Position numbers and translations under genes: made by a program. Shown here one piece after another: positions 2,883 through 64,000 of a stretch of 64,000 nucleotides of DNA. How positions within the stretch are numbered: the first letter of the stretch is position 1; every line of letters starts with the position of its first letter. The notes under the pieces are model-generated. The model did no database searches. It worked only from the letters and a program-made list of their open reading frames with translations, and was not told the origin of the DNA. The DNA is taken from NCBI GenBank assembly GCA_937891895.1, contig CALATN010000218.1:7081-71080 (forward strand). Direction: 5' to 3'. This DNA is from an uncultured Clostridia bacterium. Its GTDB lineage: Bacteria > Bacillota > Clostridia > Oscillospirales > Ruminococcaceae.

Positions 2883-5798
2883 TTGTCAAGGAAAACGAAT
2901 TTTAAAAGGACTCTGTCTGCGGCACTTGCAGTTCTCCTTTGTGTTTCTGTAATTCCTGCTTTCCCTGCGTTTGCGGAAAGTGAGCCTGTCAAGACTACTG
3001 CTGAAGCGCAGTACACTGAGGCTGCTCTTGCTTTCGAAAAGCAGAAAACTTACAGCGAATACTTTGATGAAATTGTAAATGTCAAGCGCCCGAATGCTGA
3101 GGCAATGCTCACTTACTCAGGTAAGAGCGACAATGCCGAAGCCGAAGTGACAACCTTCGAGGGCAAGGATAATGTTTTGGTATGGTCAAACGAAGAAGGC
3201 CGTATCGATTATACTGTTGAGGTTCCGCAAACAGGTGCATATCAGCTGGAGGTAAGCTATTACCCGCTTGAGGATGGCGCAAGCACTACTGAGCTTTCCG
3301 TTCTTCTCGACGGTGTTTCTCCGTATGATACTGCTACCCGTGCTACTCTCCCGCATATCTGGACAAGTGAATACCCTATTTCTACTGACTCTAAGGATAA
3401 CGAAGTCCGTCCTCCTCAGGTACAGGCGGCAAGATGGGTTAAAACTATGGTTTACGATGTGGACGGTCTGTTCAATGACCCTCTCTACTTCGTTCTCGAG
3501 GAAGGTACCCATACTATTTCCTTTGAGTCTGAACGTGCGTCTGTTGCTATTGAGTATATCAAGCTTTGCAATACTGACGGTGCAAAGACTTATACAAAGC
3601 CTTCCGATGCTGAGCTTGCAAAGAACAGCGGTGCTGAGCCAATCAGACTTCAGGGCGAACAGTATGCTTATACAAACTCTCAGACTTTGTTCCCTACATA
3701 CGACAGAGGTTCTTACCTTACTGAACCTTCCCATCCGTCCAAACAGCGCTACAATACAGTAGGTGACGGTACTTGGGATACTGCAGGTCAGGCAATTACC
3801 TGGGAAATGGATGTTGCCGTTGCAGGTTATTACAAAATTGGTATCAAGGCTCGTCAGAACGAGCTCCGTGGTCTTTATACAAACCGCCGTCTGCTTATTG
3901 ACGGTGAAGTGCCGAATGAAGCGTTTGAACAGCTGAAATTTATGTATGATGATGACTGGATTATGGTTGTTCCTGAAGATGCAAACGGTGAGGCCGCTTA
4001 CGTTTATCTTGACAAGGGCAAGCACGAGCTTTCTCTTGAGGTAATCCCTGGCGAAATTGGCGAATCTATGAGAAGACTGGATGAAATCGTGTACACGGCA
4101 AACCAGTACTATATGCAGATTCTTATGATTACCGGCCCTACACCTGACAAGTATACTGACTACTATATTCATAAGGAAATTCCTGAAATTCAGGACGTTT
4201 TCACTGAGCTTGCTGCTCAGCTTATTGAAGAAAAGGATAATATTGAAGGCCTTGCAGGTCAGAAGGGTACAGAAGCTGCTGCTCTGGAAAGACTTGCTAC
4301 TGTTCTTGAAAAGGCAGCTGATAAGCCTACAAAAATTCCTGATATGATTTCCAACAACTCCATCAAGGATAACGTTAACTCCGTTTCTTCCTGGATGCGT
4401 CAGTACCGTGAACAGCCTCTTGAAATTGACTTTATTGAGCTTGTTCCTGCTGATGGTGAGTTTACTTCTGTAAAATCAAATATCTTCAAGAGCTTCGGCT
4501 TCGGCTGTAAGGGCTTTGTCAACTCTTTCTTTGAAGACTATACACAGCTTTCCGATATCGAAGGCGACTCTATCAATGTATGGGTTTCTTCAGGCCGTGA
4601 CCAGGCTAATGTTATCAAGCAGATGGTTGACTCTGACTATAACCCTGACGCTGATGTAAAGGTAGCTGTAAACCTTGTACAGGGTGCTATTATGGAAGCT
4701 GTTCTTGCCGGAAAGGGCCCTGACGTTGCTCTGTTTGTCGGAGGTGAATTCCCTGTAAACCTTGCTCTTCGTGACCTTGTTGTTCCTATGAACGATATGG
4801 AAGGCTTTGACGAGGTTATGGGCAGATTCCAGAGAAATGCTGCTGTTCAGTATACTTACGACGGCGATGTTTATGCTGTTCCTATCACACAGAGCTTCCC
4901 TATGATGTTCTATCGTAAGGATATGCTTGCTCAGGTTGGTATCAGCGAGCCTCCTGAAACATGGGAAGAACTCATCGATATGCTTCCTGCTATTCAGAGA
5001 AAGTATATGCAGCCGGGTCTTATTCTCCCGGGCGTTGTAAACGGCGTTTCCGTTTCTCCTGCAACTGAAGCAGGTCACACATTTGCTCTGCTTATGCTCC
5101 AGTCAGGTACCAACTATTACAATGAGGATCAGACTGCTACAAACTTCGATTCACAGGCTGCTGTTGATGCGTTTGCTACATGGACAGACTTCTATAATGT
5201 ATATAAGTTTGACCAGACTTACGACGCATTTACACGTTTCAGAACAGGTGAATCTCCTATTGTTATCCAGAACTACTGTACTTTCTACAATCAGCTGAAT
5301 GTTGCCGCTCCTGAAATCAAGGGTCTGTGGGACTTCTGTGCTGTACCTGGTACAGAAAGAGCTGACGGTACTATTTCCCACGCTTCCAACTCCAATGGTG
5401 CGGGTGCTATCATCCTCTCCAGCTGTGATGACCAGGAAGCTGCATGGGAGTTCATCAAGTGGTTTACCGAAAAGGAAACAATGGTTGAATATGCACAGAA
5501 CGTTGAAGGCGTAATGGGTCCTCTCGGTCGTGTTGACGTTGCAAATACTGAGGCGCTTCAGGAGCTTAACTGGTCCAACAGAGATCTTGAAAAGATTATG
5601 TATCAGATGGATCAGCTCGAGGAAATTCCTATCGTTCCTTCCGCATATGTTGTAACACGAAGCATTATGAACGCATTCAGAGCTGTTGTTAACGACAAGG
5701 AAAATGCGAGAGAAACACTCCGTTGGTACAACATTGATATCAACCGCGAAATCACAAGAAAACGAGAAAATCTCGGACTTGATGAAAAAGAAGAATAA
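2883..5798 (+). CDS. extracellular solute-binding protein (CUT1-type ABC) fused to a ~520-aa N-terminal extension with two beta-sandwich/CBM-like repeats
   Basis: The ORF is open from GTG 2871. TTG 2883 has better RBS spacing (AAAGGTGG). Signal peptide ...LSAALAVLLCVSVIPAFPAFA. The C-terminal ~440 aa has family-1 SBP character (INVWVSSGRDQANVIKQMV...GKGPDVALF...WEELIDMLP). Confidence 0.8.
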   Translation: MSRKTNFKRTLSAALAVLLCVSVIPAFPAFAESEPVKTTAEAQYTEAALAFEKQKTYSEYFDEIVNVKRPNAEAMLTYSGKSDNAEAEVTTFEGKDNVLVWSNEEGRIDYTVEVPQTGAYQLEVSYYPLEDGASTTELSVLLDGVSPYDTATRATLPHIWTSEYPISTDSKDNEVRPPQVQAARWVKTMVYDVDGLFNDPLYFVLEEGTHTISFESERASVAIEYIKLCNTDGAKTYTKPSDAELAKNSGAEPIRLQGEQYAYTNSQTLFPTYDRGSYLTEPSHPSKQRYNTVGDGTWDTAGQAITWEMDVAVAGYYKIGIKARQNELRGLYTNRRLLIDGEVPNEAFEQLKFMYDDDWIMVVPEDANGEAAYVYLDKGKHELSLEVIPGEIGESMRRLDEIVYTANQYYMQILMITGPTPDKYTDYYIHKEIPEIQDVFTELAAQLIEEKDNIEGLAGQKGTEAAALERLATVLEKAADKPTKIPDMISNNSIKDNVNSVSSWMRQYREQPLEIDFIELVPADGEFTSVKSNIFKSFGFGCKGFVNSFFEDYTQLSDIEGDSINVWVSSGRDQANVIKQMVDSDYNPDADVKVAVNLVQGAIMEAVLAGKGPDVALFVGGEFPVNLALRDLVVPMNDMEGFDEVMGRFQRNAAVQYTYDGDVYAVPITQSFPMMFYRKDMLAQVGISEPPETWEELIDMLPAIQRKYMQPGLILPGVVNGVSVSPATEAGHTFALLMLQSGTNYYNEDQTATNFDSQAAVDAFATWTDFYNVYKFDQTYDAFTRFRTGESPIVIQNYCTFYNQLNVAAPEIKGLWDFCAVPGTERADGTISHASNSNGAGAIILSSCDDQEAAWEFIKWFTEKETMVEYAQNVEGVMGPLGRVDVANTEALQELNWSNRDLEKIMYQMDQLEEIPIVPSAYVVTRSIMNAFRAVVNDKENARETLRWYNIDINREITRKRENLGLDEKEE

Positions 5799-6806: not shown

Positions 6807-7778
6807 ATGGCTAAAAAAGAACTGAAGCCTTCTCAGATTGCGGCTCAGATTGAGGCTGAAAATGCCGCTGCGCTTGAGGCTCTGAGAAAAAGGCGTGAAA
6901 AAGAGCATGCTAAGATGGAAAAGTCCAAGGGTACCAACAAGCAGGTTGGTAAGAGCTGGAAAAACGATATCGGTATTTTCCTCTTCCTTACATTCCTCGG
7001 TGCGTTCATGCTTCTCCCTATCTACATCGCAATCGTTACATCTATCAAGCCGGTAAATGAAATCTTCATTATGCCGCCTCGTCTTTATGCGATGGACCCT
7101 ACTTTTGACAACTTCAAGGACCTTTTCGTTGTTGCAAACAACTCATGGGTTCCTTTCTCAAGAAACGTATTCAACAGTATCTTCGTTACTGTTGCAGCAA
7201 CAGTTCTTCACGTTCTGTTTGCTTGTACAGCAGGCTTCGTACTTGCTAAGTGCAGATTCCCTGGCGCAAAGGCAATCAACAAGGTTGTTGTAATTGCCCT
7301 CCTTTTCAGCAGCCAGGTAACCTACATCATGCAGTACATCGTTATGGCTAAGCTGGGTATGATCAATACATACTCCGCGCTCATTCTTCCTCTTATCGCT
7401 TCCTCTATGGGTCTTTACCTTATGATTCAGAGCGTTAGTACAATCCCTGACGCTATGATTGAAGCGTCAAAGGTTGACGGCGCAGGTCTTATGCGTATAT
7501 GCTGGGGTATCGTAATGCCGAACTCCAAGCCTGCGGTTATGACAATTATCATCTTCCAGTTCCAGGCGGCTTGGAACTCCAACGGCGGTTCACTCGTATA
7601 TGATGAAGCGCTCAAGACAATTCCTACTGTTGTTCAGCAGATTGCTGCAGCAGGTATTGCACGTCAGGGTGCGATTGCGGCTTCCGCGGTTGTACTTATG
7701 ATTCCGCCGCTTGCTATCTTCATTGCTGCCCAGAGTAACGTTATGGAAACTATGGCGCACGCCGGAATGAAAGACTAA
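6807..7778 (+). CDS. carbohydrate ABC transporter permease (MalG type), pair 1, with charged ~55-aa N-terminal extension
   Basis: RBS GAGGTGAGG. EAA loop EASKVDGAGLMRICWGIVMPNSKP. Six hydrophobic segments. Confidence 0.85.
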   Translation: MAKKELKPSQIAAQIEAENAAALEALRKRREKEHAKMEKSKGTNKQVGKSWKNDIGIFLFLTFLGAFMLLPIYIAIVTSIKPVNEIFIMPPRLYAMDPTFDNFKDLFVVANNSWVPFSRNVFNSIFVTVAATVLHVLFACTAGFVLAKCRFPGAKAINKVVVIALLFSSQVTYIMQYIVMAKLGMINTYSALILPLIASSMGLYLMIQSVSTIPDAMIEASKVDGAGLMRICWGIVMPNSKPAVMTIIIFQFQAAWNSNGGSLVYDEALKTIPTVVQQIAAAGIARQGAIAASAVVLMIPPLAIFIAAQSNVMETMAHAGMKD

Positions 7779-7871
7779 AAAATCTGCGATTTTTTGGTCT
7801 GAGAGATATCCGCATTGTTTATATGAAATGCAATCCGGAACTGATTTTAATTTGAATTATGGAGGGATAAT

Positions 7872-9377
7872 ATGTCAGGCTTGAAAAAGCTTATTTCGCT
7901 TATTTCAGCGGCGGCAATCAGTATTTCCGTGCTTGCGGTAAATACCTCCGCGCTGGAAACATATGACCCTTACAGCTATGACAGATGGGGTGACGCCGTT
8001 TCTTCACAGGCAGGCTACACCGCTGAAAAATACGTGGACGGAAATACGATCGGCTGCGGCTCTCTGAATGAGCCTGCTGACCTGTACATTTCCCACGACA
8101 ACCTTATGTACATAGCAGATAAGGGCAACAACAGAATCGTGGTTACTGACCTCGATTTCAACTTCAAGAAAGAGATGAAGGAATTCTCCTACAAGGATGA
8201 AAAGCTTACTCTTGCAAAGCCAACAGGCGTTTATGTTGACCAGTACACAGGCTACATCTATATCTGTGATACAGAAAATGACCGTGTTATCAAGTGCGAT
8301 ACAGACGGTAAGGTTGACAGACTTTTTGAAAAGCCAACGGATGCACTTTATGACCAGGCTCTTACTTATAATCCGAGCAAGGTTCTTGTCGACAAGGCAG
8401 GCAACGTTTATGTTGTTGTTAAGTCACAGACAAAGGGTGCTGTAATGTTCAACTCTCAGGGTGATTTCCTTGGCTTCTACGGTGCAAACCGAGTTGAACA
8501 GACTGCTGAGGTTCTCGCAAACGCTTTCTGGAAGATTTTCTCCACAGAGAAACAGAGAGACCGTATGACAAAACAGACTCCTATCGGCTTCTCAAACTTT
8601 GATATTGACGATGATGGCTTCATCTATACAGTTACAGATTCTCAGGAAACTACAACTGACCTTGTTAAGAAGCTCAATCCAAGAGGTAACAATATTATCG
8701 ACTCTCTCGGTGTTGCTGATATGCAGTTCGGTGATAATCCTCCTGCTTACTATTCAATCTATTCCAAGAATTCCAGCCTTACCGACATTGACCTCGGTCC
8801 TAACGGCGAGCTGAATATTCTTGACTTCCAGCATGGCCGTATTTTCCAGTACGACAAGGAATGCTGGCTGCTGTTCATTGTCGGCGGCAAGGGCAATCAG
8901 CTTGGTCTGTTTGAGTCCGCTACCGCAATTGAAAGCTACGACAATCACCTTTATGTTGTTGACTCCATCAAGGACAACATCACAATCTTTACAAGAACAG
9001 TTTTCGGTGAAATTGTTACCGACGCTGCTAACCTTTACAATGACGGTCTTTACGAGGAATCTCTTGAGCCGTGGCAGAATGTTCTGAAGTATGACGGTAA
9101 CTACCGCCGTGCTTACATCGGTATCGGTAACGCACTCTACAACAAGTATGAGTACGAGGAAGCTATGGAATACTTTGAAATTTCCATCAGCCGTGACCGA
9201 TACAACAAGGCATTTGAGGGCTACAGAGATATCTGGCTCAAGGAAAACTATATGAAGTGCCTCATTGTTATTGCTGTACTTGTAATTCTTGGTTTCGTCT
9301 ATAAGCATTTCCGCAAGAAGGGCAAGATTGTTTACCCTTGGGAAAATCGCCGCAGAGGCAGAAGGGGTGGTGTGTAA
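7872..9377 (+). CDS. secreted NHL-repeat beta-propeller protein with TPR-like segment and C-terminal membrane anchor
   Basis: Signal peptide LISLISAAAISISVLAVNTSA. NHL-like repeats (MYIADKGNNRIVVTD, IYICDTENDRVIKCD, LYVVDSIKDNITIF). TPR-like YIGIGNALYNKYEYEEAMEYFE. C-terminal TM CLIVIAVLVILGFVY followed by an R/K tail. Confidence 0.7.
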   Translation: MSGLKKLISLISAAAISISVLAVNTSALETYDPYSYDRWGDAVSSQAGYTAEKYVDGNTIGCGSLNEPADLYISHDNLMYIADKGNNRIVVTDLDFNFKKEMKEFSYKDEKLTLAKPTGVYVDQYTGYIYICDTENDRVIKCDTDGKVDRLFEKPTDALYDQALTYNPSKVLVDKAGNVYVVVKSQTKGAVMFNSQGDFLGFYGANRVEQTAEVLANAFWKIFSTEKQRDRMTKQTPIGFSNFDIDDDGFIYTVTDSQETTTDLVKKLNPRGNNIIDSLGVADMQFGDNPPAYYSIYSKNSSLTDIDLGPNGELNILDFQHGRIFQYDKECWLLFIVGGKGNQLGLFESATAIESYDNHLYVVDSIKDNITIFTRTVFGEIVTDAANLYNDGLYEESLEPWQNVLKYDGNYRRAYIGIGNALYNKYEYEEAMEYFEISISRDRYNKAFEGYRDIWLKENYMKCLIVIAVLVILGFVYKHFRKKGKIVYPWENRRRGRRGGV

Positions 9378-10040: not shown

Positions 10041-12338
10041 ATGCAGAAAAGGTTTAAAAAGCTGATTGCCTGCCTTTGCTGTCTGGCTATGATGGTTCCG
10101 CTGTGCGCTTTCCCTGCAACTGCTGAGGACGCACCTGCAACTGAAGAAGCTGCTGCTTCCGAGGAAGCTGCTGAATCAGGGGAAACATATGCTATGGACC
10201 CTGAGGAACCTCTGATTACAGATGAACAGGCATTGGCTGAAATGGAGCTTGCTACTGAAAACAGTAAAATGGCTCTGTACTACAATAAAAAGGGTCAGAT
10301 TGCTCTTGTTGATAAGGCAACAGGAGAAGTATGGTGGTCTAACCCTATAAATGTTGACGCTGCGGCAGGTAAGGCTGCTCAGAAGACAAAGCTGAAGTCC
10401 TCTATGTCTATGACTTTCGCTCAGCCTTCAAAGAGAAGCACTACTGCACAGAACAGCTCAGACCAGAAGGTTAAGTGCAAAATCAAGGTAAAGAAGAATT
10501 CTGACGGACTCGACATTACCTATGATTACGGCAACGCAGAAATTTCCGTTCCTGTAAAGGTTACTCTCAAGGACGACTACCTCAGCGTAAGCGTTGACAC
10601 AGCAGGAATTGTTGAAAGCAACAGCGATAAGATTGTAACAAACCTTATTATGATGGGTGCTTTCGGTGCTGCTGAGCCTGATGAAACAGGCTATTTCGTT
10701 ATTCCTGACGGAAGCGGCGCACTTATCAACTTCAACAACAATAAGATGAACTACAAGACTTACAAGGGTCAGGTTTACGGCAGAAATGTTACAGTTGTTG
10801 AAACAACAAAGCCTGCTGTAACTCAGAACGTTTATCTTCCTATGTACGGCATCGTTAAGGGCAACAGCGGTATGATGGTTGTTGCTGACAAGGGCGATAC
10901 TTGTGCAACAATCAATGCGTACACAAGAGGTCAGGAAAAGACCAGTTACAACGCTTGTTATTTTGATTTCGAAATCAGAACAGATGACGAATACCTTATG
11001 GGCGGCGACGCTAACCCGCTTGCCGTTTATGAAAAGAGAGGCATTCTTGTTCCTGAAATCGAGGTAAGATACTACCCTGTATCCAATTCCGACAAGTCTG
11101 AAGTTGACTATGTTGATATCGCAGATACATACAGAGATTACCTTACAAAGGAACAGGGCGTTACAAAGTCCGCAGCTGCTGACAAGTCTGCTCTCTATGT
11201 TGACTTTTACGGTGCTGTTATGAAGCAGGAAACTGTTCTCGGTCTTCCTGTTATGATGCAGCACGAAACAACCTCCTTCGAGGAAGCAAAGACAATCCTT
11301 GAAAAGCTCAAGGAGCTTGGTGTTGATGATATCGTTGCAAACTATAATCAGTGGACAACTGACGACATCAAGGAAAAGGTTGCAGATGACGCTAAGCCTG
11401 CTTCAAAGCTTGGCGGCAAGAAGGATTTCAAGGCGCTCAAGGCTTATGCTGAAGAAAACGGTATTGCTCTTTATCCTGCTGTTGATAACCTTACATTCGA
11501 GTCAGGCAACGGTTATTTCACAATGACCGATACAGCAATCAGAGTTTCCAATGCTTACTCCAGACAGATTGAATACGACCTCAACCACGGTGTTGAAAAC
11601 AAGTTCTATGACGCAATTTCCCTTCTCAGCCCAAGAAAGTATGAGAAGATGTTCAAGAGCCTTACCAAGAGCTACTCCAAGGCAGGTATTGACAATATTT
11701 CTCTGGGCAGTGCCACAACCGTTATCTACGGCGACTATGGCAAGAAGTCCGTTTCAAGAGAAATGTTCAAGTACAACCTCCAGAGCTACCTCGAAGAAAT
11801 GAAGGGTTCAATCGGTTCAATTCTTGCAGACGGAGCAAATGCTTACGTTCTCAAGTATGTTGACCACGTTTCGAATATTCCTCTCAACTCCAGCAAGTTT
11901 GATATTTTTGATCAGGAAATTCCTTTCTATCAGATTGTTATGAGCGGTGTAAAGCCTGTTTCCACAACTGCTGTAAACGGCGACGCTCAGGTTGCTGAGC
12001 TTGTTCTCCGTGCAATTGCATCAGGAACAAACCTCAGATTTGACCTTCTTGCTGAAACTGCTGACGAGTTGAAGGATACACGTTACGACAAGTATTACTA
12101 CGCTAACTATGAGTACTGGGTTGAAGATGCTGCTGCTTGCTACAAGTTTGCTGATGAAATTCTTTCCAAGACCGCGGGCTCAACAATTACCGAATACAAT
12201 GTTCTTTCCGAAACAAAGATTGAAACAGTTTACGAAAACGGCACAAAGACAATTGTTGACCTTGAAGCAAGAACTGTTGATGTAAACGGTAAAAAGGTAA
12301 GCATTTATGACTACATCGGAAAGGAGGTAATCGGCTGA
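10041..12338 (+). CDS. large secreted protein, DUF5696-like (possible glycoside-hydrolase-like fold)
   Basis: Signal peptide KLIACLCCLAMMVPLCAFPATA followed by an acidic linker. 765 aa with no catalytic motif I can name. The family assignment is from recollection of co-occurrence with Yip1 and ABC genes. Confidence 0.6.
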   Translation: MQKRFKKLIACLCCLAMMVPLCAFPATAEDAPATEEAAASEEAAESGETYAMDPEEPLITDEQALAEMELATENSKMALYYNKKGQIALVDKATGEVWWSNPINVDAAAGKAAQKTKLKSSMSMTFAQPSKRSTTAQNSSDQKVKCKIKVKKNSDGLDITYDYGNAEISVPVKVTLKDDYLSVSVDTAGIVESNSDKIVTNLIMMGAFGAAEPDETGYFVIPDGSGALINFNNNKMNYKTYKGQVYGRNVTVVETTKPAVTQNVYLPMYGIVKGNSGMMVVADKGDTCATINAYTRGQEKTSYNACYFDFEIRTDDEYLMGGDANPLAVYEKRGILVPEIEVRYYPVSNSDKSEVDYVDIADTYRDYLTKEQGVTKSAAADKSALYVDFYGAVMKQETVLGLPVMMQHETTSFEEAKTILEKLKELGVDDIVANYNQWTTDDIKEKVADDAKPASKLGGKKDFKALKAYAEENGIALYPAVDNLTFESGNGYFTMTDTAIRVSNAYSRQIEYDLNHGVENKFYDAISLLSPRKYEKMFKSLTKSYSKAGIDNISLGSATTVIYGDYGKKSVSREMFKYNLQSYLEEMKGSIGSILADGANAYVLKYVDHVSNIPLNSSKFDIFDQEIPFYQIVMSGVKPVSTTAVNGDAQVAELVLRAIASGTNLRFDLLAETADELKDTRYDKYYYANYEYWVEDAAACYKFADEILSKTAGSTITEYNVLSETKIETVYENGTKTIVDLEARTVDVNGKKVSIYDYIGKEVIG

Positions 12339-57567: not shown

Positions 57568-58191
57568 ATGGCAATTCAGAACGTTGAGCAGCTTCAGGAT
57601 ATGCATCTTGACGTGCTCAAGGAAATAGGAAACATCGGCTCAGGTAATGCCGCAAGTGCTTTGTCAGAGCTTATTCAGTGCAATACGGATATTACTGTAC
57701 CATCTGTAAAAATGCTTGATTTTTCCGAGGCAGTAAACTTCCTCGGCGGACCTGAAAATGTTGCAATCGGTATGCTTGTTGGCATCAAGGGCGATATCAC
57801 AGGTATGATGCTGTATATTCTTCAGCATTCTTTCGCAAGCAAGCTTACAAGCACACTTTTCGGAAGCGAAATTGAAGACCTTACCAATATGAATGAAATG
57901 GAAACTTCATTTATTTCCGAGGTAGGCAACATTATGGCTGCTTCATACGTAAATGCGCTTTCACAGCTCACAGGTATGATGATTGATATTTCCGTGCCGA
58001 ATATGACAGTAGATATGGTCGGAGCAATCCTCAGTGTTCCTGCTGTAGAATTTGCACAGGTAGGCAACAAGGTTCTCTTTATCGACGATGGTTTTGTAAT
58101 CGGTGACGGCGAAATCAAGAGCAATATGATACTTGTTCCCGAAATGCAGTCCCTCGAAACGCTTTTCACAAGACTGGGAGTGAGTATATAA
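57568..58191 (+). CDS. cheC: chemotaxis protein CheC (CheY-P phosphatase)
   Basis: DVLKEIGNIGSGNAASALSE and SFISEVGNIMAASYVNALSQ repeats. 207 aa, followed by cheD. Confidence 0.85.
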   Translation: MAIQNVEQLQDMHLDVLKEIGNIGSGNAASALSELIQCNTDITVPSVKMLDFSEAVNFLGGPENVAIGMLVGIKGDITGMMLYILQHSFASKLTSTLFGSEIEDLTNMNEMETSFISEVGNIMAASYVNALSQLTGMMIDISVPNMTVDMVGAILSVPAVEFAQVGNKVLFIDDGFVIGDGEIKSNMILVPEMQSLETLFTRLGVSI

Positions 58192-58671
58192 ATGGCTAAT
58201 GTAACAGTCGGAATTGCCGACCTCAACGTCGTAAAGGCTCCCGATTCGCTTATTACCTATGCTCTTGGTTCCTGCGTGGGAATCTGCCTTTATGACCCGG
58301 AAAAGAAAATTGCCGGAATGGCACATATTATGCTCCCTTTAAGTAAAGAGGCCGTGCAGGGCGTTGACAACAAGCGCCGCTATGCCGATACAGGAATTAT
58401 GGAGCTTATTCAGGATATGAATTTGCAGGGCGCATCAACAACCCGTCTTGTTGCAAAAATTGCAGGCGGTGCGCAGATGTTCAGCGTTAACTCTGCCGTA
58501 TTTAACATCGGTGAAAGAAATGTTGCCGCTGTAAAGAAAATTCTTGCCGCATATAGAATAAGAATTGTTGCCGAGGAAACAGGACAGAACTTCGGACGTA
58601 CTGTGCTTTTCCACGCTGACACAGGTATGATGGAAGTCCGTGCCGCAACAAGGGAAACAAAGTTTGTTTGA
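58192..58671 (+). CDS. cheD: chemoreceptor glutamine deamidase CheD
   Basis: LITYALGSCVGICLYDPEKKIAGMAHIMLP, IGERNV. Confidence 0.88.
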   Translation: MANVTVGIADLNVVKAPDSLITYALGSCVGICLYDPEKKIAGMAHIMLPLSKEAVQGVDNKRRYADTGIMELIQDMNLQGASTTRLVAKIAGGAQMFSVNSAVFNIGERNVAAVKKILAAYRIRIVAEETGQNFGRTVLFHADTGMMEVRAATRETKFV

Positions 58672-58789: not shown

Positions 58790-59227
58790 TTATCTTTCTT
58801 TGAAATACAGATAATATTGTACCGTGGCACAAAAGGATAACATTGCACATGTAGATATTGAAATAAGAAATTGAATATCGTTATTGCTTAAAGATATGGA
58901 TATGCACGAACAAATGATAGCTATGGTAAATCCGATTGCGGCATATAGATGATAAATCTTCTTTTTGAATTTTACTTTAGATATCTGTTCATTTTTTTCT
59001 TTCACAACCGGCATATCTTCATCACTCTGATAATTATCGTGAATGAGATAATCAGCCGACACGCCGAACAAATCGCAAAGCCCCAGCAGATTAATCATAT
59101 CGGGAGTGGAGTCGCCCGCTTCCCAGCGTGATACCGCCTGCCTTGAAACTCCGAGTTCCTCTGCAAGCTGTTCCTGGGTCAGATTGCGGGATTTTCTTAA
59201 TTGAACCAGCTTTTCACGAAAAATCAT
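58790..59227 (-). CDS. XRE-family helix-turn-helix regulator with C-terminal transmembrane segments
   Basis: FREKLVQLRKSRNLTQEQLAEELGVSRQAVSRWEAG. The C-terminal half is hydrophobic (two TM helices). Confidence 0.8.
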   Translation of the reverse strand: MIFREKLVQLRKSRNLTQEQLAEELGVSRQAVSRWEAGDSTPDMINLLGLCDLFGVSADYLIHDNYQSDEDMPVVKEKNEQISKVKFKKKIYHLYAAIGFTIAIICSCISISLSNNDIQFLISISTCAMLSFCATVQYYLYFKER

Positions 59228-59374: not shown

Positions 59375-61729
59375 TTAAAGCTTCCAGAGTTCCTCAGCGT
59401 ACTGCTTGACAGTTCTGTCAGAGGAGAACTTGCCGCTTGTAGCAATGTTCATCCAGCACTTCTTGGAGAACATTTCACGGTTCTTGTAATCGTAAAGCGC
59501 ACGAAGCTTGGTGTCAACGTAACCCTCAAGGTCAGTCAGCAGGAAGTAGTGGTCAGGCTTGTGCCAGCTTGTGCCGTTGATGAGTGCGTTGTAAAGCTCG
59601 CCGAACATACCTGTGTCGCCGTCGTTGAATGTGCCGTCAACAAGTGTGTTGATAACTCTCTTAACACGCTCGTTGGTGTAGTAAATCTTTTCCTTTGGAC
59701 GGTAGGTTGGCTTAATCTTTTCGATTTCCTCAACTCTTGCGCCGAAGATATATTCGTTTTCCCAGCCTGCTTCTTCAACAATTTCAACGTTTGCGCCGTC
59801 ATAAGTGCCGAGTGTAACAGCACCGTTCAGCATAAACTTCATATTGCCTGTACCCGAAGCTTCAAGACCTGCTGTGGAAATCTGTTCGGAAATATCAGCA
59901 GCAGGAATAAGCTTTTCAGCGTAGGAAACGTTGTAGTTCTGAACAAAGAGAACTTTAAGCTTATCCTTTGTGTCAGGGTCGTTGTTAACAAGCTTTGCAA
60001 CCTCGTTGATATACTTGATGATACCCTTTGCACGGCGGTATGCAGGAGCAGCCTTTGCACCGAAAATAAAGCAGGTAGGCTGGAGATCAGGGAGCTTGTT
60101 CTCCTTGATCTGGAAGTAAAGGTCAACGATAGAGAACGCATTGAGAAGCTGACGCTTGTATTCGTGCAGACGCTTTACCTGAATGTCAAATGCCCAATCA
60201 GGACTAAGTTCAACGCCCTCGTGCTTCTTGATGTATTCGCAAAGCTGAACCTTCTTTTCACGCTTGATGTCCATAAAACGCTTGATTGTTGCACCGTCAT
60301 CAACAAACTTCTTCAGCTCAGCAAGCTTGTCAAGCTCAGTCTGCCAGCCGTCACCGATTTTTTCAGTGATAAGTGAGGAAAGCTCAGGGTTGCAAAGACC
60401 AATCCAGCGACGTGGTGTGATACCGTTAGTCTTGTTCTGGAAACGTTCAGGGTAGATTTCGTACCAATCCTTGAGAACATCATTCTTGAGAATGTCGGTG
60501 TGAAGCTGAGCTACACCGTTGATGTATGTGGAAGCGAAGATAGCCATTCTTGCCATGTGGATACGGTCACCGTCAAAAATACGTTTAGCTTCAATCTGCG
60601 CATCAGTCTGACCGATAGAGCGAAGGTGCTTTTCAAGGTGCTTGTCAATCATAAGCACGATTTCGTAAATTGTCGGAACAACGCTCTTGAACAGGTCAGC
60701 GCCCCACTTTTCAAGCGCCTCGCCGAGAACGGTGTGGTTTGTGTAGTTGCAGGTCTTCTGTACGATTGCAAATGCTTCAGTGAAGGACATACCTTCCTTG
60801 AACATAAAAATTCTGATAAGCTCAGGGATAGCAATTGTCGGATGAGTATCGTTAAGCTGAATAGCGTACATATCAGCAAACTTGGAGAAATCATCGCCGT
60901 GTGCTTTCTTGTAGCGGCGGATAATATCCTGAATTGAAGCTGACACGAAGAAATACTGCTGCTTCAGACGCAGACGCAGACCCTTTTCAGTGTTGTCGTT
61001 AGGGTAGAGTACGTTGGAAATAGCGTCAGCAAGAATTGTGCTTTCGCTTGCGCCAAGGTAATCCTGATTGTCGAACTTGCCGAAATCAAAGCCACGGAGG
61101 GATTCGCTCTGCCAAAGGCGGAGAGTGTTGATGGACTTCTTATTGTAGCCGATAATCGGAATATCGTATGGTACAGCCATTACAGACTGGTCAGCAAAAT
61201 CAACTCTTACAGCATCATTTTCAGCACGCACGCTCCAAGCGTCGCCGTAATCAAGCCAAGCGTCAGCACTTTCCTGCTGGAAGCCGTTGCCGATGGACTG
61301 CTTGAAAAGACCGTACTTGTAGCGGATACCGTAGCCGTTGAGCGGAATATCGTGGGAAGCAGCGGAGTCAAGGAAACAAGCGGCAAGTCTGCCAAGACCG
61401 CCGTTACCGAGAGCAGCGTCCTCGATTTCTTCAAGACAGTTGATGTCAACGCCCTGCTCAGCAAGGATTTCCTTAGCTTCGTCAAGAAGACCTGCACAGT
61501 AAAGGTTGTTGAAAACCGCACGTCCCATAAGGAATTCAGCGGAAAGGTAGTAAGCACGGCGCTTTGAGTTGTGGCGCTCCTCGGAAGCATCCCAGTCAGG
61601 GATAATTTCGCTCATAACCGCACGGGAGAGTGCGTTGTGAAGCTGCTTCGGAGTAGCATTTTTGATGTCAGTACGTCCGTCAATGCGAAGGTTTTCGTTT
61701 ATTTTTGCGATAAACTGTTCTTTATTCAT
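59375..61729 (-). CDS. glgP: glycogen/alpha-glucan phosphorylase
   Basis: LGNGGLGRLAACFLDS, PLP-site EASGTGNMKFMLNGA. ATG 61729 (MNKEQFIAK...) with an AAAGGA RBS is preferred to the upstream in-frame ATG 61786. Confidence 0.9.
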   Translation of the reverse strand: MNKEQFIAKINENLRIDGRTDIKNATPKQLHNALSRAVMSEIIPDWDASEERHNSKRRAYYLSAEFLMGRAVFNNLYCAGLLDEAKEILAEQGVDINCLEEIEDAALGNGGLGRLAACFLDSAASHDIPLNGYGIRYKYGLFKQSIGNGFQQESADAWLDYGDAWSVRAENDAVRVDFADQSVMAVPYDIPIIGYNKKSINTLRLWQSESLRGFDFGKFDNQDYLGASESTILADAISNVLYPNDNTEKGLRLRLKQQYFFVSASIQDIIRRYKKAHGDDFSKFADMYAIQLNDTHPTIAIPELIRIFMFKEGMSFTEAFAIVQKTCNYTNHTVLGEALEKWGADLFKSVVPTIYEIVLMIDKHLEKHLRSIGQTDAQIEAKRIFDGDRIHMARMAIFASTYINGVAQLHTDILKNDVLKDWYEIYPERFQNKTNGITPRRWIGLCNPELSSLITEKIGDGWQTELDKLAELKKFVDDGATIKRFMDIKREKKVQLCEYIKKHEGVELSPDWAFDIQVKRLHEYKRQLLNAFSIVDLYFQIKENKLPDLQPTCFIFGAKAAPAYRRAKGIIKYINEVAKLVNNDPDTKDKLKVLFVQNYNVSYAEKLIPAADISEQISTAGLEASGTGNMKFMLNGAVTLGTYDGANVEIVEEAGWENEYIFGARVEEIEKIKPTYRPKEKIYYTNERVKRVINTLVDGTFNDGDTGMFGELYNALINGTSWHKPDHYFLLTDLEGYVDTKLRALYDYKNREMFSKKCWMNIATSGKFSSDRTVKQYAEELWKL

Positions 61730-61788
61730 TATAAATTCGTCCTTTCTTGGATTTGAAACCGCCTTTTTCAAGGCAATAAACCTCACTT

Positions 61789-61817
61789 ATTGTAACATAT
61801 TTTTTTATTTCTTGCAA
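61789..61817 (-). promoter_or_regulatory. sigma-A type promoter of glgP (TTGCAA-17-TACAAT on - strand)
   Basis: -35 at 61812-61817 and -10 at 61789-61794 (reverse complement). Confidence 0.5.
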
Positions 61818-61851
61818 CTATTTTGTGCAATAATTACGCAGAATAAACATT

Positions 61852-61880
61852 TTGATAATTTAAAGTTTATAAATTATAAT
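61852..61880 (+). promoter_or_regulatory. sigma-A type promoter (TTGATA-17-TATAAT), divergent from glgP promoter
   Basis: -35 at 61852-61857 and -10 at 61875-61880, with a 17-nt spacer. Confidence 0.55.
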
Positions 61881-61886
61881 TTAGCG

Positions 61887-62207
61887 GGGAGAGTGTGGAG
61901 ACCTATTGAGGGAGACCCTTTTGAAAAAGGGTCATCCCTCAAACTCCCTCCCTAAAACTTCTAATGTAATTTTCTATATGGGGCTTTAGCCCCATATAGA
62001 AAATTAGACTAAAAGTCTTTGGAAAGGGGTCTGGGGAATAACCTTTCCTCAGAAAGGTTTTCCCCAGTAAGTTCCCGCACCCTCCCCGTTAAATTCCAAT
62101 TTGTACAATAGTTGCACATCTCATTTGTAGGTTGCTACAAAACTTCAGAAAACCCAAAAATATTTTTCCGAAAGTTGCACGTTCGCGTGCAACTTTTTTG
62201 TTTTTTC
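61887..62207 (+). ncRNA. candidate ~320-nt structured RNA / leader (closed multi-helix domain plus UUCG-loop terminator)
   Basis: Closing helix 61885-61891 with 62082-62088. Internal hairpins at 61906-61942, 61968-62005, 62006-62018 and 62031-62067. Terminator at 62171-62207. No ORF with an RBS. Confidence 0.35.
62171..62207 (+). terminator. intrinsic terminator (11-bp stem, TTCG loop, long T-run)
   Basis: AAAGTTGCACG-TTCG-CGTGCAACTTT followed by TTTGTTTTTT. Confidence 0.85.
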
Positions 62208-62261
62208 AGCCTTTTTGTGTAGGGCGAACGCAAAGGTGCCCTGCGGAAAGGGGGTGAACGT

Positions 62262-62768
62262 GTGCAGAATCTCACTAAGGCACAGAAAAAGTTCTTGTAC
62301 CATTTCTTCAGAAGCAGGAATGTTGAAGAGGCTTCCGCCGCCTGCGGCTTTTCTCACGACTCCGCTTATGAGGAGGGTATGAAAATTCTTTCTCACCCTC
62401 AGGCATTCGGGTTTCTTGCTTCTATGGCTGTTACGATGAAGAAGGCTTCGTGCAGTACGGTTGAGGACGCTCTCGAAAGGCTTATCAACGGCAGGATAAA
62501 CGATGCGGTTATTCTTGCTGAAACGAGTCAGGAGGAGCTTACCGAAGCGGATATAAGAAAGCTTGACCTTTATAATGTGTCGGAATTCAAAATCGGCAAG
62601 GGTGTCTGCGAAATCAAGTTTGCAGACAGGCTCAAGGCCATTGAAAAGCTGAACGAAATCCGCACGGGCAAGGCTGTTGATGACCTTGCACAGAGCTTCT
62701 TTGACGCAATCGGCAAGGCTGCCGATAGTACGGTTGCCGAAAGTACAGCTGCCGAAAATGAAAATTAA
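62262..62768 (+). CDS. phage terminase small subunit
   Basis: GTG start after AAGGGGGTG. N-terminal HTH-like QKKFLYHFFRSRNVEEASAACGFSHDSAYEEGMKIL. Located immediately upstream of the terminase large subunit. Confidence 0.7.
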   Translation: MQNLTKAQKKFLYHFFRSRNVEEASAACGFSHDSAYEEGMKILSHPQAFGFLASMAVTMKKASCSTVEDALERLINGRINDAVILAETSQEELTEADIRKLDLYNVSEFKIGKGVCEIKFADRLKAIEKLNEIRTGKAVDDLAQSFFDAIGKAADSTVAESTAAENEN

Positions 62769-62789: not shown

Positions 62790-64000
62790 TTGGCGAAATT
62801 CACACAGTTCTCTCAGAAACAGCTTACGGTGCTGACGTGGTGGAGAACGGAAAGCTATAAGGATTGTGATGCCGTTATCTGCGACGGTGCCGTGCGAAGC
62901 GGCAAGACACTTTGTATGTCGCTTTCCTTTGCGGCATGGGCCATGGCGAATTTCAACGGCGGTACATTTGCAATCTGCGGCAAGACGGTTACTTCGCTGA
63001 AAAGAAACGTTATTACGCCGCTGCTGTCATCACTCAGGGGACTTGGTTTTCGCTGTACCGAAAAGGTAAGCGCAAGCTGCGCTGATATTTCGGCAGGCGG
63101 CAGGACCAACCGTTTCTACTTTTTCGGCGGCAAGGACGAAGGCTCTGCGGCACTTATCCAAGGCATCACACTCAGCGGTGTAATGCTTGACGAGGTGGTG
63201 CTTATGCCCCGTTCCTTCGTGGAACAGGCGCTGGCGAGATGTTCGGTAAGCGGCTCGAAAATCTGGTTCAGCTGTAATCCTTCATATCCGTATCACTGGT
63301 TCTACCGTGAATGGGTGCTCAAAGCAAAGGAGAAGAAAGCGCTGTATCTGCATTTCACAATGGACGACAATCCGTCACTTTCGGAGGAAGTCCGTGAAAG
63401 ATACAAGCGGCTTTATTCGGGCACGTTCTATGACAGGTTCGTGCTGGGAAAATGGGTTGCGGCAGAGGGTCTGGTGTATCCGATTTTTTCAGAGAAAAAG
63501 CACATTGCACGCAAGCTTCCCGAATGCTTTGAGAAGTACGTTGTTTCCTGCGATTACGGAACAGTCAATCCGTCCTCCTTCGGCCTTTGGGGAAGAAGTG
63601 GCGGGACGTGGTACAGAATTACCGAGTATTATTACAGTTCAAAACGGGAGGGTATGTCAAGAACTGACGAGGAACATTACGAGGGGCTATGCAAGCTCAT
63701 AGGCGACAGACGGGTTGAGGGAGTAATCGTTGACCCGTCAGCAGCATCTTTTATTGAATGTATCCGCCGTCACGGCAAATATCCCGTTACAAAGGCACAG
63801 AATGACGTGCTGTCAGGCATAAGACGCTGTTCCGACGCCCTGCGGGACGGAAAGCTTATGTTCAGTGAGGACTGCACGGACATTCTTCGGGAATTTTCCT
63901 TGTACCGCTGGGATGAAAGCCGCAGCGGTGATGTTCCCATCAAGGAAAATGACCACGCTATGGATGATATGAGGTATTTTGTGACAAGTCCGTTTTTCCG
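62790..64000 (+). CDS. phage terminase large subunit (PBSX-like family), 3' end outside window
   Basis: Not in the supplied ORF track because no stop occurs in the window. TTG 62790 follows GGAGG. Walker A CDGAVRSGKT, Walker B GVMLDEV, nuclease-domain motifs VSCDYGTVNPS and ENDHAMDDMRYF. Confidence 0.85.
   Translation, partial: MAKFTQFSQKQLTVLTWWRTESYKDCDAVICDGAVRSGKTLCMSLSFAAWAMANFNGGTFAICGKTVTSLKRNVITPLLSSLRGLGFRCTEKVSASCADISAGGRTNRFYFFGGKDEGSAALIQGITLSGVMLDEVVLMPRSFVEQALARCSVSGSKIWFSCNPSYPYHWFYREWVLKAKEKKALYLHFTMDDNPSLSEEVRERYKRLYSGTFYDRFVLGKWVAAEGLVYPIFSEKKHIARKLPECFEKYVVSCDYGTVNPSSFGLWGRSGGTWYRITEYYYSSKREGMSRTDEEHYEGLCKLIGDRRVEGVIVDPSAASFIECIRRHGKYPVTKAQNDVLSGIRRCSDALRDGKLMFSEDCTDILREFSLYRWDESRSGDVPIKENDHAMDDMRYFVTSPFF

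Follow-up and report, generated by a model that had tools for sequence, protein, structure and literature searches.

The stretch of DNA analysed here (hereafter the window) comprises 64,000 nucleotides of a contig from an uncultured Clostridia bacterium (CALATN010000218.1, positions 7,081 to 71,080 of the forward strand) and ends within a phage-like gene cluster that opens with the terminase genes terS and terL. Between terS and the divergent glgP gene lie a large palindromic domain (61870-62102) and, next to it, a short leader (62105-62262), which we interpret as two neighbours that are probably unrelated: the domain would be one copy of a dispersed palindromic DNA repeat and the leader a conserved part of the terminase cluster. 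The comparison of homologous loci suggests that the repeat behaves as a dispersed DNA palindrome similar to MITEs (miniature transposable elements with inverted repeats), REP or ERIC sequences, and not as a leader RNA of terS. An earlier sequence-only reading had joined a promoter, a multi-helix RNA domain and a terminator into a single unit in front of the terminase genes; this unit came apart on comparison, the domain being missing upstream of terS in the related loci L002-L019, with copies elsewhere in both orientations.

Loci related to the terminase genes

The alignment of terS relatives led to 26 loci, originating from Oscillospiraceae, Ruminococcus and Clostridia metagenome-assembled genomes, while the search of the TerS protein against IMG/VR found no relatives. 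Gene order is shared by all terS loci (terS, terL, portal, capsid and then more structural genes), and one of them, L001, encodes a TerS identical to that of the window. The genes found upstream of terS vary by locus and are cellular, encoding a pyruvate kinase, a permease, a TetR regulator or a glycoside hydrolase; since unrelated host genes occupy this place in different loci, the leader constitutes the left edge of the conserved unit. In L014 (4568-5739), an amidase-type lysin and a holin-like protein, recognized by eye from the translations, are encoded directly before the terS leader and after a host aminotransferase gene, so the left boundary of the prophage-like unit varies among loci.

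Region 61300-62300 was compared with these loci using BLASTN. Positions 62105-62300 are conserved upstream of terS in L001-L019, and the 61870-62102 domain was not found upstream of terS in L002-L019, where homology begins only at about 62105. L001 matches the window only from 62091 rightwards, that is, over the terminal 12-mer AAATTCCAATTT of the domain and everything to the right of it.

Copies of the domain were found at other places. L005 carries one at 7750-7981, with 88% identity to 61870-62102 and on the opposite strand, right after the terL stop codon and ahead of the next structural gene; the comparison with this copy served to set the repeat boundary at 61869/61870. Parts of the domain were matched about 4 kb downstream of terS in L021, and L021 and the IMG/VR contig L031 have copies between the capsid gene and the same downstream gene, one per orientation. 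The IMG/VR contigs L028, L029 and L030 contain additional copies ahead of other genes. Among related clusters, the repeat is present or absent at the terS, terL/portal and capsid/next-gene junctions. A leader of the HK022 put type, which the sequence-only reading had proposed, is hence conserved in neither position nor orientation upstream of the homologous operons. The put element is an RNA of about 70 nt with two stems, found at fixed positions in phage operons; the only idea it shares with the domain is that of a structured RNA upstream of a terminator, whereas the domain, a palindrome of 230 nt, is not kept at this place in the related loci.

L005 (6498-8770) also differs from L001 (731-5080) and L004 (6516-11055) by the loss of the portal and capsid genes: its terL leads directly into the palindromic repeat, behind which comes the gene usually placed after capsid. 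The end-points of this deletion coincide with intergenic palindromes of the relatives, and four tRNA genes are found after the shortened cluster (L005:11005-11432). Intergenic palindromes were noted at L001:1988-2068 and 4221-4315, at L004:7768-7891 and 10162-10233, and in the terL/portal spacer of L006. The terL/portal and capsid/next-gene spacers each hold a long palindrome whose arms are made of mirrored repeats of about 7 nt (GGAATTN, AATTCGC, GTGGAG); the sequence of these arms differs among close relatives, and the palindromic character is kept at the same site.

The conserved terS leader

The alignment of the leader covers 21 loci and is gapless except for a one-base insertion in one locus. 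Its hairpin has the form AGTTGCAC(G)-loop-(C)GTGCAACT and is located 4-5 nt after the A/T palindrome AAAAATATTTTT (Table 1). The seven stem pairs, GTTGCAC/GTGCAAC, are invariant, with a constant 6 nt between the half-sites. The loop and the eighth pair are variable, and all 21 loci have the T-run. The most distant locus, L024, whose TerS is 39% identical, keeps both the invariant stem and the T-run. An upstream GTTGCAC always starts 63 nt before the GTTGCAC of the hairpin; this heptamer has 12 sites in the 64 kb, both strands included, three of them in a 90-nt stretch of the leader.

By its sequence, the 62170-62207 hairpin has the composition of an intrinsic (Rho-independent) terminator, namely a G+C-containing stem-loop followed by a T-run. 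The frozen sequence of the stem and the frozen spacings imply recognition by a sequence-specific factor, and the 62105-62262 leader is thus best described as a terminator-like element that is, by all appearances, also read sequence-specifically.

Two earlier observations were confirmed here: the hairpin with a UUCG loop and a T-run about 55 nt before terS is present and, as the comparison adds, conserved in the 21 loci, and the promoter scan revealed no sigma-70-like promoter between this hairpin and terS. Because a hairpin with a T-run precedes the first packaging gene, the downstream genes would need read-through. Most likely, transcription entering the late or packaging operon would halt at the leader hairpin unless a cluster-encoded factor permits read-through, and this factor would recognize the GTTGCAC repeats, in DNA form at the promoter or in the form of the RNA hairpin. 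The earlier proposal that terS is reached by read-through hence remains a reasonable model for the hairpin of the leader, but the transcript need not come from the promoter match at 61852-61880; it would start from a promoter within the conserved leader or further upstream.

This organization is reminiscent of the lambda PR'-tR' region controlled by Q (6S RNA) and of the bipartite conAn system, presented in one report as processive antitermination in Gram-positive mobile elements (PMC8191782), in that a terminator-like hairpin is found just before the first late or packaging gene and is conserved with it. Judged by its anatomy, the 62170-62207 hairpin is an intrinsic terminator ahead of the first late gene, as in lambda Q-type systems. 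The differences are that no Q-like antiterminator gene, pause or Q-binding element (QBE) features were identified in the window, beyond which the cluster continues, that no good sigma-70 promoter is conserved in the leader, that the window system begins with terS and not with lysis genes, and that, unlike tR', it has a stem of invariant sequence with a repeat 63 nt upstream.

Several points weigh against a role of the leader in transcription termination and its control. No good sigma-70 promoter is conserved across the leader in the 21-locus alignment, the sole candidate being a weak TTGCAC-18-TACAAA (62112-62141, with TACAAA at 62136-62141) found only in closer relatives. The invariant terminator stem shows no covariation in favour of RNA pairing. 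No antiterminator gene was identified in the window, the cluster extending beyond its end at position 64000. Finally, the fixed 6-nt spacing of the half-sites and the 63-nt phasing, equivalent to six helical turns, suit a DNA-binding site at least equally well. It is less likely, though quite possible, that GTTGCAC-N6-GTGCAAC and the upstream GTTGCAC are DNA sites, either a pac site wrapped by a TerS oligomer or a late regulator's operator or activator site, the T-run being incidental. The invariance of the half-site, the third copy placed exactly six turns upstream, the phased A/T palindrome between the boxes, the gapless alignment and the lack of any compensatory change in the stem all agree with this possibility, as does the position of the palindrome centre in distant loci, about 41 nt upstream of a TATAGT hexamer (hand count on the alignment). 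A pure DNA site would, however, have no need for the T-run, which is kept in all 21 loci including L024, and the hairpin has the anatomy of an intrinsic terminator. In phage SPP1, pacL and pacR are pac sites with phased TerS-binding boxes. The window resembles them, as far as can be told from sequence alone, by its short boxes phased by whole helical turns and its A/T tract immediately upstream of terS, and differs in that one of its box pairs forms a hairpin followed by a T-run.

Sigma-54, SigD-type and TcdR-type promoter readings of the leader were rejected by eye, as their critical positions appeared to misfit. A small hairpin at 62125-62142 was paired in only 67% of cells in the covariation test. 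The terminator stem, being invariant, was uninformative in the same test.

A dispersed family of nested palindromes

To define the family, the 24 bases of its most conserved part, AAAGTCTTTGGAAAGGGGNNNGGGGAA, were used as a search pattern on a metagenome collection. At least 120 metagenome contigs match this core pattern, and the family is common in Oscillospiraceae and other Clostridia from gut, rumen and digester metagenomes. Among the matches listed, three contigs contain two copies and numerous matches are located within about 60 nt of a contig end. The family plan comprises a variable outer arm, hairpin A (TTGAGGGAnACCCTTTTGAAAAAGGGTnnTCCCTCAA), a C-rich linker (ACTCCCTYCCTAAAACTT), a variable central hairpin, a second, G-rich linker (AAAAGTCTTTGGAAAGGGGT), hairpin B (CTGGGGAAnAACCTTTC..GAAAGGTTTTCCCCAG) and a second outer arm; the two arms are inverted and vary from one subfamily to another. 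The centres are of two types, short (48-56 nt) or long (88-111 nt); the window copy belongs to the former, with a symmetric centre and no T-run.

According to crude calls of open reading frames (ORFs), 17 of 58 distinct full copies are found between convergent genes and 3 between divergent genes, while those in tandem contexts read with the genes (10 copies) or against them (15 copies). The copies are mostly located at gene 3' ends, in both orientations. The neighbours of ten copies are housekeeping genes, encoding DapB, a SpoU methylase, an amidase, a DEAD-box helicase, GroEL, an aldo-keto reductase, a NadB-like oxidase, BioB, ArgG and a PARG-like protein, which indicates that the repeat is chromosomal and not phage-specific. 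No match to the element was found in INPHARED phages and PLSDB plasmids (blastn, distant mode), and a full-text search with the conserved 17-mer of the family found no paper; to all appearances, the family has no published description.

A palindrome at the terL/portal junction of L004, which has no core, has the same termini and arms: the terminal 12-mer (AAATTNNAATTT) and a stretch resembling GGGGAGAGTGTGGAG are common to it and to the outer arms of the window and L005 copies. The window copy looks like a core placed in the centre of a local AAATTNNAATTT-ended palindrome. The arms of the 58 copies fall into 30 clusters, meaning that the core is combined with numerous different arms, and this variety would reflect either insertion into pre-existing hairpins or a rapid turnover of the arms.

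The repeat has several hallmarks of MITEs: it is small and non-coding, has terminal inverted repeats (AAATTATAATTT/AAATTCCAATTT), and shows dispersed copies and presence/absence polymorphism. Similarities to bacterial MITEs and palindromes (the Correia elements of Neisseria, ERIC/IRU of enterobacteria, RUP/BOX of pneumococcus and REP/BIME) include the small size (about 230-400 bp) with inverted ends, the folding of the whole element as a long hairpin, the dispersed intergenic copies favouring gene ends, the occurrence in both chromosomes and phage or prophage DNA, and a presence that differs among relatives. The ends of Correia elements can supply promoter-like hexamers, which is another likeness to the window repeat. 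The window family differs from these elements by a polar conserved core with two distinct hairpins and linkers, by a centre that is hypervariable yet nearly perfect, by outer arms that are unrelated among many copies, and by the nesting of its core in another palindrome, with no target-site duplication or parent insertion sequence identified. The repeat would have entered a hairpin-rich intergenic location through transposition or recombination, and there it would act at most as a passive hairpin block to transcripts.

Three results count against this mobile origin. Target-site duplication was not established at the examined flanks, the ends of which are AT-rich and themselves palindromic; TA is compatible with the flanks of the window, L005, L034 and L045 copies, but the window and L046 copies show TG at one side. 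When long ORF-bearing copies were sought among 130 instances, neither an autonomous partner element nor a transposase was identified: none has an ORF between the conserved linkers, and across 75 copies the largest centre measures 218 nt. Finally, no clean filled/empty pair with identical flanks was found. L063 was the sole match of a search for a clean empty site with adjacent arms and proved to be a reduced one-hairpin variant.

A more ambitious interpretation, which we consider unlikely, would turn the repeat from an ordinary MITE into mobile nested palindromes whose core homes into the apexes of existing hairpins, for instance those of terminators or of other palindromes, and whose invertible modules (the core and the apical terminator-like hairpin) serve as portable and possibly switchable transcription blocks for gut Clostridia and their phages; independently, the GTTGCAC triple and the terminator would constitute the signal of an undescribed late antitermination or packaging system, marking the left edge of a widespread Oscillospiraceae cluster.

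RNA or DNA

The structural elements described in the sequence-only reading were all recovered where it had placed them, namely the CGGGGAG/CTCCCCG helix, which closes 61885-62088 by sequence and in the minimum free energy fold, the hairpins at 61906-61942, 61968-62005, 62006-62018 and 62031-62067, and the C-rich, anti-Shine-Dalgarno-like run ACTCCCTCCCT (61943-61953), which is part of the left linker. That reading had overlooked that the whole domain is one imperfect palindrome, with two arms of 118 nt (61868-61985 and 61988-62105) found 75% complementary by the repeat finder, and that the minus strand folds better. The plus-strand fold of 61880-62210 reaches -146 kcal/mol, versus -77 ± 5 kcal/mol for shuffled sequences (z = -13.9), and the minus-strand fold is more stable, at -159 kcal/mol (z = -14.5).

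An outer helix kept as RNA on one strand should accumulate more G.U than C.A mismatches on that strand. In the 58 copies, the outer arms (median 35 nt, 84% complementary) contain 109 G.T and 104 A.C mismatches, without bias for either strand. Such equal counts carry no RNA-strand signature and are expected of decaying DNA inverted repeats.

This result bears on the proposal, improbable in our opinion, that the family is a multi-copy structured non-coding RNA (ncRNA) gene with a four-way junction, of about 230-330 nt and transcribed from B to A (the minus strand of the window, towards glgP). Such a gene is suggested by core modules conserved in sequence and structure across very different contexts, and further observations on its side weigh against a purely DNA-level repeat: in 45 of the 58 copies the core is more stable, by about 3.6 kcal/mol, when folded on the B-to-A strand; four G.T wobbles, conserved and confined to one strand, are present in the linker helix; and complementarity reaches 96% in the central stems, compared with 84% in the outer arms, although 55 of 57 centres differ in sequence. 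The perfection of the central stems requires either selection for a hairpin or arm-to-arm correction; the decay of dead repeats alone does not explain it. The linker wobbles and the strand advantage of the core leave room for a single-stranded role of the core, as RNA or single-stranded DNA. The strand asymmetry of the core is nonetheless weak evidence, because it stems from four G.T linker pairs inherited by all copies, and the small one-strand advantage was not accepted as an indication of RNA in view of the outer arms, which evolve independently and give no such signal. Moreover, the copies lack a conserved promoter or terminator in their flanks, the apical terminator-like module is found either way round, the core is inverted at an orthologous site, several contigs hold two copies, and no match to an Rfam family was obtained.

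At the gathering score, Rfam 15 returned no family over the whole window and no match for 17 other copies (15 further loci plus L028 and L029). At E ≤ 10, region 61700-62300 gave nothing but long-hairpin miRNA models, matched below threshold on both strands. Membership of the ROOL or GOLLD classes, evoked earlier, is thus excluded to the extent that such models can judge, as neither family reached its gathering score in the window or appeared in this 600-nt region at E ≤ 10. The domain resembles these RNAs by its ties to Firmicutes prophage regions and rumen samples, and differs by being smaller, palindromic and multi-copy.

Inversion and deletion variants

At an orthologous site with the same flanking genes, the whole core is inverted between its arms in L039 compared with L115. 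The long centres contain a small apical hairpin with a T-run, in one orientation in L096, L107 and L115 and in the other in L068, L059 and L037. Both cases suggest inversion between nested inverted repeats. At another orthologous site, the L077 and L063 copies differ by internal deletions. Inversions, deletions and apical modules placed either way do not fit a strand-specific cis-acting leader.

One could see in these nested inverted repeats an invertible DNA switch, comparable to an inverton, in which flips of the core or of the apical module would alter transcription across the intergenic region. The inverted core of L039 relative to L115 and the two orientations of the apical hairpin and T-run within similar central stems (L096/L115 versus L068/L059) are in line with this idea, which we nevertheless judge very improbable: the differences are between samples and not inside one population, any segment between inverted repeats can occasionally invert by homologous recombination, no recombinase is associated with the repeat, and the centre of the window copy is symmetric and devoid of a T-run.

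The promoter match at the repeat edge

The promoter-like TTGATA-17-TATAAT was retrieved at the place assigned to it previously. The 12-mer that ends the repeat, AAATTATAATTT (61870-61881), includes the -10 hexamer TATAAT (61875-61880), and the -35 hexamer TTGATA (61852-61857) is in the glgP-side flank, outside the repeat; the match is therefore a hybrid produced by the junction. The terminal 12-mer would by chance supply TATAAT and, together with the flanking TTGATA, mimic or perhaps create a promoter. This promoter may or may not fire, and it does not belong to the conserved terminase unit.

Least probable of all is the model in which a leader RNA (61885-62088), made from this promoter, controls terminator read-through into terS, either by modifying RNA polymerase in the manner of HK022 put or otherwise: a strong promoter match, a very stable fold, a conserved terminator and the lack of a promoter match between terminator and terS speak for it, but L002-L019 lack the domain upstream of terS and retain the terminator, the same domain is found beside housekeeping genes in both orientations, the -10 belongs to the terminal 12-mer of the repeat and there is no Rfam match, so that the comparative data largely refute it already.

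Organization of the window

The coordinates of the features discussed above and of the surrounding genes are given in Table 1.

Table 1. Features at the glgP/terS junction of the window
Feature	Position	Strand	Description
glgP ORF	59375-61786	-	803 aa, Phosphorylase match; 5' side ends at 61786; divergent from terS
glgP promoter-like site	61789-61817	-	TTGCAA-17-TACAAT with TG; outside the repeat and undisturbed by it
Sigma-70-like promoter match	61852-61880	+	TTGATA-17-TATAAT; 11/12 matches; predicted only
Dispersed nested-palindrome repeat copy	61870-62102		Short-centre type, 233 bp; outer arms and core (hairpin A, left linker, central hairpin, right linker, hairpin B)
Left outer arm	61870-61905		Palindromic 12-mer AAATTATAATTT (61870-61881), then AGCGGGGAGAGTGTGGAGACC; aligned with the arms of L005 and of the core-less L004 palindrome
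Hairpin A	61906-61942		TTGAGGGAGACCCTTTTGAAAAAGGGTCATCCCTCAA; conserved family module
Left linker	61943-61967		ACTCCCTCCCTAAAACTTCTAATGT; family-conserved; pairs with right linker; 75/130 instances at ≤4 mismatches
Central hairpin	61968-62005		Perfect 17 bp; variable module; compensatory differences versus the L005 copy
Right linker	62006-62030		TAGACTAAAAGTCTTTGGAAAGGGGT; includes 5-bp hairpin (62006-62018); most conserved stretch of the family
Hairpin B	62031-62067		CTGGGGAATAACCTTTCCTCAGAAAGGTTTTCCCCAG; conserved module, about 95% identical across unrelated contexts
Right outer arm	62068-62102		Ends in AAATTCCAATTT
First conserved leader block	62107-62117	+	AATAGTTGCAC; direct copy of the hairpin 5' arm
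A5TAT5 block	62156-62167		AAAAATATTTTT; near-invariant A/T palindrome; fixed 38-nt spacer after AATAGTTGCAC
Terminator-like hairpin and T-run	62170-62207	+	GAAAGTTGCACG-TTCG-CGTGCAACTTTT, then T-run TTGTTTTTT; stem 62170-62197, 12 pairs, 5 G-C, loop 4
Leader remainder	62208-62261	+	Conserved block GCCTTTTTGTGTAGG; ribosome-binding site AAGGGGGTG
terS	62262-62768	+	GTG start, 168 aa, Pfam Terminase_2 match; strong ribosome-binding site AAGGGGGTG ahead
terL	62793-64000	+	N-terminal 402 aa; terminase large subunit match; runs off the window end

The repeat copy sits precisely where host DNA, here the promoter region of glgP, meets the left edge of the prophage-like terS-terL-portal-capsid cluster. 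This cluster, which continues past position 64000, is the sole phage-like part of the window, the remainder of which appears to be ordinary chromosome, with an even G+C content (0.40-0.49). No tRNA or tmRNA candidates for an attachment site near the junction were found within the 64-kb window.

Just upstream, ORFs at 57568-58671 were judged by eye to encode CheC-like and CheD-like chemotaxis proteins. An XRE-family helix-turn-helix protein of 145 aa with a hydrophobic C-terminal half is encoded at 58790-59227 on the minus strand, beyond glgP on the far side from the terS cluster, so that glgP stands between them. In the minus-strand reading of 61811-61829, AAAATAGTTGCAAG, the -35 region of glgP holds AATAGTTGCA, which nearly equals the 10-mer of the first terS-leader block (62107-62116). 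The two form a perfect 10-nt inverted repeat pair, 284 nt apart, and bracket the palindromic repeat; this pair may have arisen by chance, reflect a -35/UP-like context common to both, or be left over from the junction.

Implications

Altogether, the large domain seems to be an ordinary kind of object from a seemingly undescribed family, and the short terminator-like leader would be the conserved and functionally interesting part of the junction. Dispersed palindromic repeats of this kind will yield false ncRNA candidates in Clostridia and their phages. They also break assemblies, with many copies located at contig ends, and may drive rearrangements, portal and capsid having been lost at one of them in a relative. 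MITEs common to hosts and their viruses have been documented and proposed as a host-virus link (PMC11602168), and a repeat present in both chromosomes and phage clusters could serve in the same way.

The interest of these elements would increase if hairpin apexes proved to be targets of the core, if the core turned out to be an invertible switch, or if GTTGCAC were to define a new antitermination or packaging mechanism. The conserved leader, with its GTTGCAC repeats, A5TAT5 block and hairpin followed by a T-run, provides a concrete target for studying the control of late or packaging genes in common prophage-like elements of Oscillospiraceae.

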